DNA of 64,000 nucleotides from Minisyncoccia bacterium (GTDB taxonomy: Bacteria; Patescibacteriota; Minisyncoccia; 2-02-FULL-40-12; IGHO2-01-FULL-4-A): positions 10,388 through 74,387 of the forward strand of contig JBGQJN010000001.1 of assembly GCA_041499075.1 (NCBI GenBank). The letters are read 5' to 3'. Positions 1,064-6,676 of this stretch are shown here, piece after piece (the first letter of the stretch is position 1; the number at the start of each line of letters is the position of its first letter). A program made the translations under genes and the position numbers. Below the pieces are notes generated by a model. It worked only from the letters and a program-made list of their open reading frames with translations. It made no database searches and had not been told where the DNA came from.

Positions 1064-1498
1064 TCAAAGTAATCTGTTTAGCTCCTTATCCAGCGCCGCA
1101 TTCACGAGACGGTCGGCACCGCGATTTTTTTCGCGAGGTATGTGCTTAAAAAATACATCACCAAAGTCAACCTTGAGATTCCAGAGCTCCAAAAAATGCT
1201 TTTGTATAGTCTTATCCATAATCTTGTAATGACCGTTGAGCTGACGTTCAATCAATTCGCTGTCCAGATGGACTTCTACTGATGCTCGGCCGACAGCTTC
1301 TTTGCCTGCCAATTGTTTGAGTTTTTTCAAGGCAAAAATCACCGCTTGGTATTCGGCATCATTATTGGTGGTTTCCCCGATGTACTCGCTGTATTCCTTC
1401 TTCAGCGATTTGTCGGCTGCTTCTATTACCACGCCGATCGCCGCCGGTCCGGGGTTCCCACGCGATCCCCCATCTGTATGAATTATGTATTTAGTCAT
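1064..1498 (-). CDS. rnhA: Ribonuclease HI
   Basis: N-terminus IHTDGGSRGNPGPAAIGVV is the RNase H type-1 signature; 144 aa. Confidence 0.8.
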   Translation of the reverse strand: MTKYIIHTDGGSRGNPGPAAIGVVIEAADKSLKKEYSEYIGETTNNDAEYQAVIFALKKLKQLAGKEAVGRASVEVHLDSELIERQLNGHYKIMDKTIQKHFLELWNLKVDFGDVFFKHIPREKNRGADRLVNAALDKELNRLL

Positions 1499-2621
1499 AG
1501 TAATTTAGAGCTTCCAACCCGGGTAGTTTGTTGCCGGCAAGGAATTCCAGCATTGCACCGCCGCCGGTTGAGACAAAGCTCATTTTATCCAAAAGCCCGA
1601 GTTTGCCCACAGCGGATATGGTATCACCGCCGCCGATGATAGACACTGCCGCCGAAGCTACGGCAACACTGACGGCGTTAGTGCCTGCGGCAAACTCTTC
1701 TACCTCCGACAAGCCCATCGGCCCGTTCCAAACTACCATAGATGATCCGGCAATAATTTCCGCAAATTTCTTGGCCGTTTCCGGTCCAATATCAACTATC
1801 AAAAACTCCGGCTCAATGTCTTTAACCGCAGAAACTTCCGTACCAGATTTACCAGTTTTGTCATCAGAAATTAAAATATCTTCCGACAATAATATTTTAT
1901 CACTTTTTACGTCCAGTGAAACCGTATCGTCCACAACCGAATAGCCTACGTTGACGCCGTTTGCCTTGAAAAAATTATTCGCTATGGCACCGCCTATCAA
2001 AATTCGCTCCGCTTTGTCCAAAAAATTCTTAATAACCGGCAGTTTAGTTGAGATCTTGGCTCCGCCCATGACCAACACCTTGCCGGCAGAAGGCGCTTCA
2101 ATTGCTTTGGATAGACTCTCCGTTTCTTTTCTTATTAAAAATCCAGCATATGACGGTAAATGCTTAATAATGGCCGCTACCGAGGCGTGGTTACGGTGGC
2201 AAACCGCGAAAGCATCATTGACATAATAGTCAAAACCTGCCGCCAACTCTGCCGCGAATCCATCATCGTTTTTCTCCTCGCGCGGGTCTTGGCGAATATT
2301 ATCAAGGAGTAGTAGCGGACCCACCCCGAATAGTTTATCAACCGCGCCCAGTTCAGAGTGAGGTACCAAGGTAAGGGTATGATTCAGTATCTCGCCCAAT
2401 TCCTCCACTATCGGGCCAAAAGTATCGCCAATATCAATATGGCTAATCAAAAGCATTTTGGCACCGTTCCCCAATAGATAATCTATCGTCTCTTTGTTGG
2501 CTTTAACTTTGAAACTATCGACAATTTTGCCATCCTCCACCGGCACATTAAAATCCACCCGCAGTAAAACTTTTTTGCCGGCCAAATCTTCTTTTTTTAG
2601 CTCTTCTACAAATTTAATCAT
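1491..2621 (-). CDS. pgk: Phosphoglycerate kinase
   Basis: 376 aa with KVLLRVDFNVP and the PGK fold motifs throughout. Confidence 0.9.
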   Translation of the reverse strand: MIKFVEELKKEDLAGKKVLLRVDFNVPVEDGKIVDSFKVKANKETIDYLLGNGAKMLLISHIDIGDTFGPIVEELGEILNHTLTLVPHSELGAVDKLFGVGPLLLLDNIRQDPREEKNDDGFAAELAAGFDYYVNDAFAVCHRNHASVAAIIKHLPSYAGFLIRKETESLSKAIEAPSAGKVLVMGGAKISTKLPVIKNFLDKAERILIGGAIANNFFKANGVNVGYSVVDDTVSLDVKSDKILLSEDILISDDKTGKSGTEVSAVKDIEPEFLIVDIGPETAKKFAEIIAGSSMVVWNGPMGLSEVEEFAAGTNAVSVAVASAAVSIIGGGDTISAVGKLGLLDKMSFVSTGGGAMLEFLAGNKLPGLEALNYYD

Positions 2622-2628
2622 TAATTAA

Positions 2629-3627
2629 TTATACCAAATTTTCGTCTATGGTTTCCAATACCTTTCGCTTAAGATTGTAGCCATTGCCATACTCAAGCAT
2701 GCCCAAGTAAGAATCGGCAACTTCTTTTTTAACACCACAAGAAATCTTTTTAAACATTCGTCTTCTAGTTGTAGTCCTCAAAACTCTGTGATCTGGAAAA
2801 TTGACCCAGCCGAGAAAATCTACACCGGAAGTTATTGTTCTAATTGAGATTTTGTCTTGATGTAATTTCAGATGAAGTTTTCTATCTAAGAACTCCCCTA
2901 TCCTAGATAGAGCCAACCGAAGCCAAACTTTATCTTTGGATAAAACAACAAAGTCGTCAGCATAACGGATATAATATTTGGCACCAAGTTCATGCTTAAT
3001 GAACTGGTCAAACTCATTCATATAAATATTTACAAAAAGCTGGGAGGTCAGATTGCCCAAGGGTAAACCCCTACCATAACCAGCCGAGAAGCTATCAATA
3101 ACTTGCGACAAAAGCAATAATACATCCTGATCGGAAACATATTGAGATAATATGTTTTTCAAAATGACGTGATTAATATTTTCAAAAAACTTTTTGATAT
3201 CACACTTGAGCGTCCAACAAGTTCGGGTGTTGTTACTACTGGCTTGGTAAGCAAAACTTCTGAAATGATTGATAGCTTTGTGCGTTCCCTTGTTTAATCT
3301 GCAGGAAAAAGAATCGGCCACAAAGACCCGATCAAAAAACGGATACAAAATTCTGTAGATAGCATGGTGAAGAAGACGATCTCGGACCGGCGCTTTGTGT
3401 ATATGCCTTGGTTTCGGATCAGAGATATTGAACGCTTGATATCCGCCGTGTTTATATGTATGATTGGCAAGATGCAATTGCAAACTTAATATATTATCCA
3501 TCAGGTTTAACTGAAAGTCCTGCACGTCACGCTTGTTTCGTTTACCTTTAACGAATTCTCGCCAAGCCTCTAGCAAATTATCAACACTAATTATATCCTC
3601 AAATTTATGAGCCAAAATAGTTTTCAT
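2629..3627 (-). CDS. Diversity-generating retroelement reverse transcriptase
   Basis: Contains LPLGNLTSQLFVNIY, where the DGR-specific SQ replaces QG in RT motif 4. Also has the YADDFVV catalytic motif and a DGR-RT-like N-terminus NLLEAWREFVKGKRNKRDV...PVRDRLLHHA. The start is placed at the internal MKTIL (3627); the 383-aa track ORF would overlap avd. Confidence 0.85.
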   Translation of the reverse strand: MKTILAHKFEDIISVDNLLEAWREFVKGKRNKRDVQDFQLNLMDNILSLQLHLANHTYKHGGYQAFNISDPKPRHIHKAPVRDRLLHHAIYRILYPFFDRVFVADSFSCRLNKGTHKAINHFRSFAYQASSNNTRTCWTLKCDIKKFFENINHVILKNILSQYVSDQDVLLLLSQVIDSFSAGYGRGLPLGNLTSQLFVNIYMNEFDQFIKHELGAKYYIRYADDFVVLSKDKVWLRLALSRIGEFLDRKLHLKLHQDKISIRTITSGVDFLGWVNFPDHRVLRTTTRRRMFKKISCGVKKEVADSYLGMLEYGNGYNLKRKVLETIDENLV

Positions 3628-3648
3628 TTCAATAATCCATCTTCTAAG

Positions 3649-3658
3649 CCCCCCCCCC
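3649..3658. repeat. C10/G10 homopolymeric tract in the divergent avd-RT intergenic region
   Basis: Ten consecutive C lie 9 nt upstream of the avd ATG and 21 nt upstream of the RT ATG (opposite strand). Confidence 0.9.
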
Positions 3659-3667
3659 AGGCCTTCA

Positions 3668-4009
3668 ATGTCCATTATCCAAAGATTTGTCGCGGCATAC
3701 AAGCTTTGGCAAGAGTACATCAGCCACTTTCCGAAAAAATCTCGATATACGCTTGGAGGCAAAATTGACTCTCTTTTCATAGATACCGCAGAACTGATGT
3801 TTACTGCAAGTTATCTCACAAAAGACAAGAAACTGCCATATATTCAAAAAGCGTTGGGCACTTTTGATTTATTAAAATTCTTTCTGCAAATAGCTTGGGA
3901 AATCGGATCAATGGATAACAAGAAATATGCTGCGTTATCTGAACCGCTTAGTGAAATAGGAAGAATGCTCGGAGCCTGGTACAAACAAACACAAACCCCG
4001 TCTAAATAG
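3668..4009 (+). CDS. avd: Avd-like accessory variability determinant (four-helix-bundle, 23S rRNA IVS-protein family)
   Basis: 113 aa with FPKKSRYTLGGKIDSLFIDTAELMF...LGTFDLLKFFLQIAWEIG, the pattern of the four-helix-bundle/Avd family. It lies between TR and RT on the opposite strand. Confidence 0.7.
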   Translation: MSIIQRFVAAYKLWQEYISHFPKKSRYTLGGKIDSLFIDTAELMFTASYLTKDKKLPYIQKALGTFDLLKFFLQIAWEIGSMDNKKYAALSEPLSEIGRMLGAWYKQTQTPSK

Positions 4010-4036
4010 GCGGGTTTTGTAAAAATAACATTAGTT

Positions 4037-4168
4037 TCGGACAGCAGCGAAGCGGCAGTTGTCATTCCACCTGTTGTCGTTCCAGTTCAGGTTCAGCTTG
4101 CGCTTCGAGCCGTTCCTGTTGAGGTAAGGCACGTTGCGGTTGTCGTTGCTATTCTGCCACACGGAGCC
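4037..4168 (-). repeat. DGR template repeat (TR)
   Basis: 132 bp, near-identical to 4516-4649 apart from 25 positions. Every one of those is A on the minus strand of TR and G or T in VR. The TR sense strand is rich in AAC codons. Confidence 0.85.
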
Positions 4169-4423: not shown

Positions 4424-4458
4424 GAACTCCCGCTCGCGGAAACCGCGAACGGGAGTTA
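4424..4458 (-). promoter_or_regulatory. GC-rich hairpin immediately downstream of VR / target-gene stop (possible DGR homing-associated hairpin or terminator)
   Basis: actcccgctcgcggaaaccgcgaacgggagt is a 13-bp stem, followed on the minus strand by a U-rich run. Confidence 0.5.
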
Positions 4459-4511: not shown

Positions 4512-5120
4512 CTACTTGCGGACAGCAGCGAAGCGGCAGCCGCCACTCCACCCGCCGTCGCTCCAGCCCAGGAACAGCCCGCGCTCCGAGCCGCCCCCGA
4601 TGAGGCAAGGCACGCTGCGGAAGCCGCTGCTATCCTGCCACACGGAGCCAAGAGCGAAGATTGGGAACTCGCGCTGCTTTTCCGGGTAGGTGACACCGAA
4701 GGCCAGTAGCTCAAGGAGAATCGCCGGACGCATGCCCTTTGACTCGAGGTCTTTGAGCACGTCGTCAGTCGACATATTCCGCCCATAGTGAACGAGCTCG
4801 ATGACGACATCCTGCTGGCCGCTGCCTTGGATCGGGAAGTGGTCGGCGTTGATGTCCTCATTCGCCCAGTCGTACTTGCCGGCCACGATCATCTCCTTGA
4901 GGGACTGGCCGTAGTTGACGACGACCTTGTAGCAGTTCTCGGCCACTCCGACCGCCGCGTCGATCAGCTTCAGAACGAACTCGTCGGTCAGCCGCTTGAT
5001 TGTGTCTTCGGACAGGCCGAGGATCGCTTCCTCCGCCTGGCGCAGCTTGACCGCGCCGATGATCCGAGTGGTGATGGTTGATACGAACCCGAACGCCGAA
5101 CCGATCGCTGACTTTGCCAT
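4512..5120 (-). CDS. DGR target protein (202 aa; C-terminal variable region, likely C-type-lectin-fold ligand-binding domain)
   Basis: C-terminus ...WQDSSGFRSVPCLIGGGSERGLFLGWSDGGWSGGCRFAAVRK is encoded by VR. GC content (~60%+) is well above the surrounding ~45%. Confidence 0.7.
   Translation of the reverse strand: MAKSAIGSAFGFVSTITTRIIGAVKLRQAEEAILGLSEDTIKRLTDEFVLKLIDAAVGVAENCYKVVVNYGQSLKEMIVAGKYDWANEDINADHFPIQGSGQQDVVIELVHYGRNMSTDDVLKDLESKGMRPAILLELLAFGVTYPEKQREFPIFALGSVWQDSSGFRSVPCLIGGGSERGLFLGWSDGGWSGGCRFAAVRK
4516..4649 (-). repeat. DGR variable repeat (VR) at 3' end of target gene
   Basis: See the TR entry. VR covers the last ~44 codons of the 4512..5120 ORF and runs to its stop codon. 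Confidence 0.85.
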
Positions 5121-5321: not shown

Positions 5322-6068
5322 CTATCCTAATGTAGCGGCTATTTTCGAAATCTCCGCAAATTCTTGTTTGTGCAAACTGGCACCGCCGATGACGGCGCCG
5401 GATATTTCTGGGTACTTGAGGAAATCAGCTACATTTTTTTCATTAACAGAGCCACCGTACAAACAGCCTGTGGCCGAGAGCTTATAGCTGATAGCTAAAA
5501 AATCTTTAATGATTTTAATGGCCCCAAGCGTATTTTCGGGAGTATCGGGTTCAGCTCCCGGTGCAGTGCTTATCGCCCAAACCGGCTCGTAGGTAATGAG
5601 AATTTTAGAAACTTCGCCGGCATTTAAGCCATTCAAATCAGCAGTTATCTGGTCTTCTAAAATCTTTTTTCTGTCGTCTCCTCTGTTTCGTTCGCCAACA
5701 AGCAAAACCGGGGTTATGCCGGCAGCCAACGCCGCTTTGATTTTTTTATTTATCACCTCGTCGGTTTCGCCTATTTTGTAACGCCTGTCCGAATGACCAA
5801 CCAAGACATGGGTTACGCCAAAATTCTTTAGCATATCCGGAGAAATCTCGCCAGTATAAGGCCCGGACCCCTCCCAAAATATATCTTGGGCGCCAAGATG
5901 TTCTCTGTCTATCTTAGACAGTTCTTCAATAAAAATCACCGGCGGACAGATCACGCTCGTTATACTGGCATATTCGCCGGCAGACTTAACTTCGGCGGCA
6001 AAAAGATCCTGTGCTTCATCTAGCTTAGCCGGGTTCATTTTCCAGTTTGCAATGATAATTTTTGTCAT
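5322..6068 (-). CDS. tpiA: Triosephosphate isomerase
   Basis: IIANWKMN, VGHSDRR and GE motifs of TIM. The start is probably the internal MTKII. Confidence 0.9.
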   Translation of the reverse strand: MTKIIIANWKMNPAKLDEAQDLFAAEVKSAGEYASITSVICPPVIFIEELSKIDREHLGAQDIFWEGSGPYTGEISPDMLKNFGVTHVLVGHSDRRYKIGETDEVINKKIKAALAAGITPVLLVGERNRGDDRKKILEDQITADLNGLNAGEVSKILITYEPVWAISTAPGAEPDTPENTLGAIKIIKDFLAISYKLSATGCLYGGSVNEKNVADFLKYPEISGAVIGGASLHKQEFAEISKIAATLG

Positions 6069-6676
6069 TTCTTTTTTTTGATATGTTTCCAAACAAACCA
6101 GATCAAGCCAACAATAATTACCGCCCCGATCACAAGTTCAAATTTCTGAAAATACGGCCTCAAAACATCCCAGTGATTACCCGTAACATAGCCAATGTAA
6201 ACCAGCGGCAGATTCCAAACTAATGACCCAAGTAGAGTGTACCAAACAAATCTTTTAAAATTAATACGGCTAACACCAATAATCAAAGAACTGAAAGTCC
6301 TGACACCCGGTAAAAGTCTTGAAAAGAAGGCAATCTTCGCTTCATAACGACCTGACCAGCTTTCAAGCTTTCTGACATCGGATTGATTTATCAAAAAGTA
6401 TTTACCGTAACGATCGACTAGCGGCCGTCCACCTAAGAATCCAACGGTATAGATCGCCACCGCTCCGGCAATATTTGCCGCCGTTGCGATCAGTACGATT
6501 AGCCACAGATTAAGTTTGCCGCTTGAAGCTAGGAAACCGCTAAAAGGCAAAACTACCTCTGACGGAATCGGTATGGCGGCGCTTTCAAGCATCATTGTAA
6601 AAAAAATACCGCCATAACCGAACTTGGCAATCAGAGCTAGGGCCCAAGCTACTATTTTTTCTATAATTGGACTCAT
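6065..6676 (-). CDS. DedA/TVP38 family membrane protein
   Basis: 203 aa, multi-transmembrane, with the conserved DedA region FFSRLLPGVRTFSSLIIGVS. Confidence 0.7.
   Translation of the reverse strand: MSPIIEKIVAWALALIAKFGYGGIFFTMMLESAAIPIPSEVVLPFSGFLASSGKLNLWLIVLIATAANIAGAVAIYTVGFLGGRPLVDRYGKYFLINQSDVRKLESWSGRYEAKIAFFSRLLPGVRTFSSLIIGVSRINFKRFVWYTLLGSLVWNLPLVYIGYVTGNHWDVLRPYFQKFELVIGAVIIVGLIWFVWKHIKKKK

Follow-up and report, generated by a model that had tools for sequence, protein, structure and literature searches.

A homopolymer in the head-to-head avd/RT overlap as a probable heritable switch for targeted hypermutation in Patescibacteria

The retroelement and its repeat tract

The stretch of DNA analyzed here, 64,000 nucleotides of contig JBGQJN010000001.1 from a Minisyncoccia bacterium (hereafter the window, or W), carries a diversity-generating retroelement (DGR) in which the gene for the accessory factor Avd and that for the reverse transcriptase (RT) diverge from a run of ten cytosines. 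The run (C10, 3649-3658, CCCCCCCCCC) reads as G10 on the RT-sense strand and is the sole G or C homopolymer longer than six in the 64-kb window, where C runs of three, four, five and six number 410, 81, 17 and 2 and the next is this single run of 10. It lies 9 bases (3659-3667, AGGCCTTCA) upstream of the annotated avd ATG at 3668 and 21 bases (3628-3648) upstream of the RT ATG on the minus strand (A at 3627), so that the two starts are separated by a gap of 40 bp (3628-3667). An earlier note on this DNA had placed the tract at 3649-3658, 9 nt from avd and about 20 nt from RT within a 40-bp gap, and the sequence agrees.

The RT gene (2629..3627, minus strand, 332 codons, PF00078) is taken to start at methionine 52 of a longer open reading frame (ORF; MKTILAHKFEDII), a placement based on alignment with its homologues, which begin at MK(I/T)QL. 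On RT's own strand this start is 21 nt downstream of the G run, and translation of RT in W is predicted to begin after the tract and independently of it. The avd body (3668..4009, plus strand, 113 codons and a stop) matches the bAvd family PF22296 and has ATG as its first codon, where most relatives have a leucine codon. A template repeat of 137 nt (TR; 4032..4168, minus strand) is 80% identical to a variable repeat (VR; 4513..4649, minus strand) at the 3' end of the target gene, and thus at the C-terminus of ORF 4512..5120. In the alignment, every mismatch falls at a TR adenine. Because TR and VR differ only at TR adenines, the element is a genuine DGR; a DGR-type RT stands beside Avd, and homologues are annotated as DGR Avd or RT in metagenome-assembled genomes (MAGs) of Patescibacteria. 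Two further public records of the locus (JGI Ga0534154_0001270 and NCBI JBGPMC010000002.1) carry C10 and are 100% identical to the window over 4.3-6.7 kb, tract and VR included. Exact-sequence look-up of the 113-aa Avd and the 332-aa RT gave no match; the 363-aa call of the W RT was matched (P0001; labels beginning with L and P denote related loci and proteins, respectively, in this analysis). Gene callers often extend RT through the run in this way.

For comparison, 80 loci from species-representative genomes and 80 from metagenomes were collected, with duplicates removed before counting. The closest RT relatives are 59-78% identical and come from MAGs of Patescibacteria, also known as the Candidate Phyla Radiation (CPR). 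A pure G run (in RT sense) lies between divergent avd and RT in 137 non-redundant Patescibacteria loci, with a modal length of 9-10 (6 nt in 2 loci, 7 in 5, 8 in 19, 9 in 37, 10 in 42, 11 in 20, 12 in 6, 13 in 3 and 14 in 3), and reaches at least 8 in 130 of them. The G is always on the RT-sense strand in these pure-tract loci, and the 695 kb of related loci contain just three G/C runs of at least 7 at any other position. Six loci carry another repeat at the tract site, namely (GA)n in L042 and L081, (CT)11 in L046, (TC)15 in L183, (GT)8 in L134 and (GT)11 in L160, and seven retain only a decayed remnant (L028, L031, L039, L132, L136, L186 and L201). A position matrix of the tract flanks showed weak conservation, below 0.8 bit per position. 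Given the variable length and repeat type and the poorly conserved flanks, it is therefore a repeat that is conserved, and no particular motif. The tract is mostly missing in more distant divergent avd/RT pairs of IMG/VR (55-59% identity). Differences in tract length were saturated at all RT distances among the loci compared (at most 78% identical) and hold no rate information. In three public assemblies (L009, L029 and L040), runs of N adjoin the G run, and so scaffolds tend to break or be gap-filled there; tract lengths from such records were excluded as unreliable.

Position of the avd start and phase of the tract

Comparison across these loci places the start of avd in this family within RT, on the complementary strand, from where its frame passes through the RT leader and then through the tract, which is read as prolines. 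In W, the predicted family-wide start is the ATG at 3607..3609 (plus strand), complementary to codon 7 of RT (His, CAT). It opens a stop-free 5' extension of 14 codons (3607..3648, plus strand, MSQNSFHFNNPSSK) that is antisense to RT codons 1-7 and the RT leader, and with the start placed at 3607-3609 the tract would be read in avd sense as CCC proline codons within the extension. The sequence CCACCTCCG is a synonymous, interrupted form of the run in which the avd frame is kept.

The evidence for this placement comes from both strands. The avd body begins with a conserved leucine followed by proline (Met-Ser at 3668 in the lineage of W), and the codon for this first residue is TTG in 36 loci, TTA in 15, CTG in 13, CTT in 8, CTA in 3, CTC in 3 and ATG in 3, W being among the last. 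Since all six leucine codons are in use, selection is for an internal leucine and not for a start codon. In RT, His7 is encoded by CAT in 104 loci and by CAC in 3, compared to 672:539 (55% CAT) for the other histidines of the same RTs (p=1e-21); read from the avd strand, CAT is ATG, which makes the His7 codon the antisense of the avd start. Between that ATG and the tract, stops occur in the ATG frame in 4 of 104 loci and in the other two frames in 86 and 88 of 104. Within the RT-leader stretch alone, stops occur in 3 (ATG frame), 26 and 61 loci for the three frames (p=3e-15). The loci with decayed tracts provide what we consider the decisive control for the predicted coding role: all seven have the avd body in the frame of this ATG (e.g., MRQLNFSHNTNSTPPPLLPVVEKVK in L031), and so do the tract-less relatives L075 (with GTG in place of ATG), L093 and L096. 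Extended Avds are also present in the protein database (P0183, MSQLDFNKNSNPLSPPPYASLPIIQRF; P0182, MFKKNSSTPPPRPSMSIIQRL; and P0311), and the junction of P0182 is the one that W would have with C9. Searching for any upstream ATG, GTG or TTG, with the real tract compared to tracts shifted by +1 or +2, gave no enrichment of the real phase. We attribute this null result to the tract phase being random although the ORF is real, as judged by the leucine-codon, antisense-ATG, stop and decayed-tract tests.

The avd/RT junction is a systematic source of error in public annotations of this clade. At identical sequence, the gene tables of L083-L088, L117-L123 and L204-L221 call Avd as 135, 118, 92, 71 or 68 aa or miss it. 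A start inside RT on the other strand would correct these gene models, in which avd is routinely mis-called, truncated or missed. Heterogeneity of Avd length within 90% clusters, as between P0183 (134 aa) and P0320 (102 aa), was considered as a proxy for phase and rejected, the call in L010 being shortened by annotation alone.

Pure-tract loci, 85 in this comparison, fall into all three phases, with the upstream ATG and the avd body in the same frame in 22 of them, one base out in 30 and two bases out in 33, a uniform distribution (chi-square p=0.32); dinucleotide-repeat loci are divided between three in frame and three out. Yet the avd body is intact in 60 of 60 complete out-of-frame loci, at 109-131 codons, the same as in in-frame loci, and 36 out-of-frame loci have no ATG, GTG or TTG after the tract. 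In some 20% of loci (28, W excluded; among them L005, L010, L017, L127, L129, L131, L144, L147, L150 and L151), it is RT that lacks an ATG, GTG or TTG after the tract. Here, the RT frame reads the run as glycine codons (e.g., MPNLINNNQPLNNGQSSVGGGRRRIEFSHSF) from an upstream start that is antisense to avd. A single tract-length class puts RT and avd both in frame in 23 of the 24 determinable loci, with a chance expectation of 1/3, and the class that is needed is spread 7/8/9 across the three phases. The two frames are thus coupled, whereas the tract itself drifts from phase to phase. From the joint frame in 23 of 24 loci, we infer that selection acts on the in-frame state at the level of DNA, and a single repeat is predicted to gate two genes on opposite strands in this subclade.

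The window itself retains the features of the family, namely CAT as the His7 codon of RT, an extension free of stops and a pure tract. In its present C10 phase, the ATG at 3607 opens an ORF of 53 codons (3607..3768, plus strand) that is out of frame with avd and leaves the avd body in another frame. When the tract length is varied in silico, C9 and C12 give fused Avds of 133 and 134 aa (MSQNSFHFNNPSSKPPPRPSMSIIQRF...), and C7, C8, C10, C11, C13 and C14 give dead-end ORFs of 52-59 aa. The fused W product would have a junction peptide such as SSKPPPRPSMSIIQR, comparable to NSSTPPPRPSMSIIQR in homologues. In the subclade of W, L125, L011 and the P0302 lineage, ATG replaces the leucine codon at the start of the body (the more distant L192 has CTC). 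In the present phase, W could make Avd only from this internal ATG3668, to judge from its frames, and in a poor context.

Strain-level variation and the proposed switch

Tract length was compared within ten lineages of contigs encoding identical or nearly identical RT or Avd. It differs between near-identical strains in three. In a Yanofskybacteria lineage, eight contigs carry CCA-G8 and two carry CCAA-G9, and between L122 and L119 these 2 nt are the sole difference in 3270 bp. L053 and L195 have G11 and G8, respectively, with one substitution in 2042 bp. In the P0302 lineage, whose Avd is 88% identical to that of W, nine contigs have C7 and one has C8, and the Avd protein is identical. The tract is invariant in the other seven lineages (W, P0009, P0045, P0159, P0076, P0007 and L180/L188; 2-7 contigs each), many of these contigs coming from one site and possibly from one population.

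Turnover of VR offers a hint of what the phase may do. Samples of the in-frame lineage P0045 differ in VR (19 and 2 mismatches), as do contigs of the P0302 lineage, which has a strong Shine-Dalgarno (SD) sequence, AAGGAG, and an ATG after the tract. There was no VR difference in five out-of-frame lineages, namely W, P0009, P0159, P0076 and P0007, the last from the same sample series as P0045. Turnover in 2/2 lineages predicted to be able to express Avd and in 0/5 out-of-frame lineages, small as these numbers are, hints at a link between the two.

We therefore propose that the tract probably turns targeted hypermutation on and off in a heritable manner. The best-supported account of the data is translational phase variation of avd, and in one subclade of RT as well, by slipped-strand mispairing, and we put its probability at a little under 60%. 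Translation of avd would start at the ATG antisense to RT His7 (3607 in the window), cross the RT leader in antisense, pass through the tract as Pro-Pro-Pro and enter the four-helix-bundle body at the conserved Leu-Pro (Met-Ser at 3668 in the W lineage). Slipped-strand mispairing during replication would alter the length of the tract and so shift the upstream start into or out of frame with the avd body; in W, a slip of -1 or +2 (C9 or C12) would restore an Avd of 133-134 aa. The RT of the Bordetella phage system needs Avd to make cDNA, and because of this requirement avd would be an effective control point. If Avd is needed for cDNA synthesis here too, then an out-of-frame tract would silence mutagenic retrohoming both heritably and reversibly. 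The locus shows several defining features of a contingency locus, with a perfect repeat of hypermutable length (a G/C run of about 8 or more) placed between start and body of a gene that is otherwise intact. The data establish the anatomy of the locus, its conservation, the lability of the tract in evolution and its polymorphism among strains; switching at high frequency within populations, with the DGR turned on and off by it, is what we infer. More tentatively, and with slightly less than an even chance of being right, we envisage that in this DGR clade, which is restricted to Patescibacteria, a hypermutable repeat gates the hypermutator itself. The head-to-head avd/RT overlap, with each start antisense to a His codon of the other gene and the repeat read as Pro on one strand and Gly on the other in the subclade, would then allow slippage to switch Avd alone or Avd and RT together, such that only a shifting minority of cells diversifies the target and the rest keep a fixed variant.

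Several observations weigh against a switch of this kind. Only about a quarter of loci are in frame, so that either most sampled populations are OFF or expression occurs without in-frame DNA. The consensus length is invariant in seven of ten lineages, that of W included (three records, all C10, possibly from one population), and also in P0045, where VR turns over. The Yanofskybacteria allele differs by one A plus one G and is no pure slip of one unit. In the same lineage, L122 and L123 share the frame-breaking allele but not the VR, with 9 positions different between them, so that a simple ON/OFF prediction fails. VR likewise differs between contigs of the P0302 lineage despite an out-of-frame extension; the DGR of that lineage is evidently at work in the wrong phase, and an internal start can therefore bypass the tract. 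The internal ATG3668 of the W lineage, judged by its position, may do the same; in W it has only AGG at -9 to -7 and a C/G-rich context, in a genome that hardly uses SD sequences (none in 32 of 34 window ORFs of at least 200 codons). Finally, RT codons F9 and D11 are T-ending in 90-91% of cases, and part of the CAT bias at His7 must therefore be regional, with His7 still the extreme.

The same intact but out-of-frame genes could be explained by recoding, in which RNA polymerase stutters, or the ribosome frameshifts with tRNA-Pro, on CCC-CCC-C and some Avd is made in every phase. The tract would then be an attenuator that keeps Avd low, and changes of its length in DNA would be incidental. A uniform phase (22/30/33) alongside an avd body that is intact in every out-of-frame locus, 36 of which have no alternative start, is what recoding would lead one to expect, as are the retention of 130/137 tracts at a length of at least 8, enough for slippage, and the stable consensus length in 7/10 lineages. 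Polymerase slippage at long homopolymers rescues frameshifted genes in reduced-genome symbionts. The present loci resemble those of insect endosymbionts in that a long homopolymer is all that puts intact ORFs out of frame and the genome is reduced; unlike the poly(A) runs of endosymbionts, which are genome-wide and driven by AT mutation bias, there is here a single G/C tract, retained at one site of a genome with no other. Recoding is harder to reconcile with the lack of a fixed genomic phase. No single required shift is conserved, and a classical programmed +1 or -1 frameshift is therefore unlikely. Moreover, the dinucleotide repeats of six loci are good substrates for DNA slippage and are not known recoding sites, 23/24 subclade loci are built for a joint frame at one DNA length class, and turnover of VR was confined to lineages that can express Avd in a conventional way. 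We consider recoding unlikely, if the most serious of the rival explanations.

A second alternative is that tract length tunes transcription of RT, avd or both through overlapping divergent promoters or 5' untranslated regions (5'UTRs). A TAnnnT box begins at the base after the run in 24/137 loci, compared to 0-8 at any other offset, and in 18 of the 24 the arrangement is G(n)-TAnnnT-N6-8-ATG, with the spacing that a leaderless RT mRNA would have. The W genome has many -10 boxes of the leaderless type, and a weak TTGAAG-16-TAGAAG straddles the tract in W. In contrast, the abutting -10 box is missing in W, where a consensus scan finds no straddling promoter, and the sum of tract length and the distance from the avd start landmark is not constant across loci, with implied spacers of 15-21 on hand inspection of the flanks. 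A constant promoter spacing was also sought with the flank matrix, the consensus scan and hand-derived -35 candidates over the avd start, and none emerged. Nor does a promoter spacer explain the antisense ATG, the stop-free frame, the leucine first codon or the rule that holds in 7/7 decayed-tract loci. We regard it as improbable as the primary mechanism; an effect on RT transcription may be a second effect in the subclade with the abutting -10 box.

This was the mechanism favored by the earlier note, which had read the 40 bp as a control region where length changes would alter promoter spacing or 5'UTRs of both accessory genes and so could switch the DGR. Its slippage hotspot holds up well, with a pure repeat throughout the clade, lengths of 6-14 and other repeats in six loci; the length heterogeneity that it looked to related genomes for is present in three of ten lineages and absent from seven, including that of W. 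The proposed switch survives insofar as the tract behaves as a hotspot able to gate the DGR, with the gate now placed in the avd reading frame and not in a promoter or 5'UTR. A non-coding control region no longer fits, as the comparative evidence puts the avd start at 3607-3609 and makes the tract coding; nor does the promoter or 5'UTR mechanism, the -10-like box abutting the tract in only 24 loci and not in W. An effect on both genes is contradicted for W by an RT start that would follow the tract.

We find it very doubtful that the tract is a structural or sequence-specific element, such as an H-DNA insulator, a protein-binding site or part of the DGR RNA. Every pure-tract locus has its G run in RT sense, and the (GA)n and (CT)n variants are homopurine-homopyrimidine as well, but (GT)8 and (GT)11 at the site in L134 and L160 are not homopurine, on which ground the H-DNA idea was rejected. 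Flanks below 0.8 bit, reading-frame evidence that has no place in such a model and a TR RNA that probably ends at a terminator at 3985-4014, far from the tract, likewise argue against it. Pairing of the G run with a C-rich or known RNA was also considered and dropped, there being no nearby C run on the RT-sense strand, no Rfam match and no tRNA. Chance or an assembly artefact, e.g., two-color poly-G, to which the runs of N beside the tract in three assemblies might point, can safely be set aside, because some 140 independent assemblies, produced by many studies with many pipelines and including the closed genome CP066687.1, have the run mid-contig, its length recurs in the 3-9 independent assemblies of each lineage and there is no comparable run elsewhere.

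Relation to known systems and other features of the locus

In mechanism, the proposed switch would be known in kind, as a contingency locus of the lic1, opa, pilC or Campylobacter poly-G type. Intragenic contingency loci include (CAAT)n in Haemophilus influenzae lic1, (CTCTT)n in Neisseria opa, poly-G in pilC and lgt, and the poly-G genes of Campylobacter jejuni. Like these, the DGR loci have a perfect repeat of 8-14 units just past the start codon, whose length shifts the frame of an intact ORF, the repeat type varies among orthologues, and ON and OFF phases are mixed across isolates. Unlike in them, it is an accessory factor of a retroelement mutator that would be gated here, not a surface or modification gene, and the host is an environmental, reduced-genome Patescibacterium and not a host-adapted pathogen. 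The repeat also lies in a head-to-head overlap with RT, with the avd start antisense to an RT His codon, and one subclade reads it on both strands (Pro in avd, Gly in RT), where it would gate both genes.

Phase variation through a promoter spacer is known from poly-G in Neisseria meningitidis porA, poly-C in opc, poly-C in the fim genes of Bordetella pertussis and (TA)n in the divergent hifA/hifB promoter of H. influenzae. These systems share with the present loci a G/C homopolymer of about 9-11 nt between divergent genes, and an abutting -10-like box is found in 24/137 loci here. They differ in that a switch of coding frame is the main evidence here and in that no conserved -35/-10 pair straddles the tract of W. 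Phase variation of porA is among the subjects of PMC3639595.

The DGR itself resembles that of Bordetella phage BPP-1 (mtd-avd-TR-brt) in its RT, its Avd of bAvd fold and a TR and VR whose mismatches are specific to adenines. The avd, TR and brt of BPP-1 all point the same way, whereas avd is here inverted, head-to-head with RT, and carries the tract. We know of no repeat tract or phase switch described for the BPP-1 DGR.

How cells restrain DGR mutagenesis is an open question, and the mechanisms that regulate retrohoming of Bacteroides DGRs were said in a 2024 preprint to "await discovery" (bioRxiv 10.1101/2024.11.15.621889). The Patescibacteria DGR clade corresponds to clade 2 of Roux et al. 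(PMC8144416). Neither homopolymers or simple repeats in DGRs nor phase variation in Patescibacteria turned up in full-text searches of the literature, which did not extend to the key paper on CPR DGRs (Paul et al. 2017). What is new is the gated function, the head-to-head overlap with starts antisense to His codons, the reading on two strands in a subclade and the host group. If the switch is real, it would give this DGR clade a control point that can be read from sequence, and DGRs could be scored as ON or OFF from metagenomic reads and related to VR diversity; errors in homopolymer length at the tract would alter the state that is assigned. It would also extend contingency-locus biology to free-living or episymbiotic uncultivated bacteria.

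Other features of the locus concern the ends and starts of its transcripts. A hairpin between the avd stop and TR (3997..4014, within 3985-4014) has T/U-rich tails on both strands, with GTTTGTGTTTGTTTGT past the stem on the minus strand, and is likely, from its sequence, a bidirectional terminator for the avd mRNA and the TR RNA. TR RNA would then end only about 20-45 nt past TR, and the 3' spacer that the Bordetella DGR RNA requires would here be very short and antisense to the 3' end of avd. A GC-rich hairpin with a 15-bp stem lies just downstream of VR (4425..4457, minus strand). Between L229 and L224, whose Avds are identical, fourteen substitutions fall between the avd stop and the target gene (locus positions 1891-2047). 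They probably lie within TR, where variation between strains is unexpected from DGR action itself. In RT, a second strong synonymous bias is found at codon 56 (W numbering), which is CAT in 33/33 loci where the residue is His. Many starts in the window have a TATAAT-like box 6-7 nt upstream, the geometry of leaderless mRNAs; upstream of pgk (start 2621, minus strand), the stretch at 2622-2640 reads TGGTATAAT TAATTA ATG and falls within the 3' end of the RT gene. A strong SD sequence (AAGGAG) precedes just two window ORFs, one of them the DGR target gene (start 5120).

The ORF-poor stretch of about 620 nt at 445-1063, between a sugar-transferase-like gene (start near 445 by the gene table of L001) and an RNase H-like gene, is unusual in a compact genome and contains no Rfam family and no tRNA. 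The RNase H/RVT_3-like gene (1064-1498, minus strand; PF13456, PF00075), 1.1 kb away from the RT of the DGR, overlaps with the end of pgk and may be a housekeeping rnhA or be linked to the DGR. The DGR cassette of target, TR, avd and RT, all on the minus strand except avd, is inserted between tpiA (5322..6092) and pgk (1491..2621), with 8 nt between the RT stop and the pgk start, and interrupts what is usually a glycolytic gene cluster.

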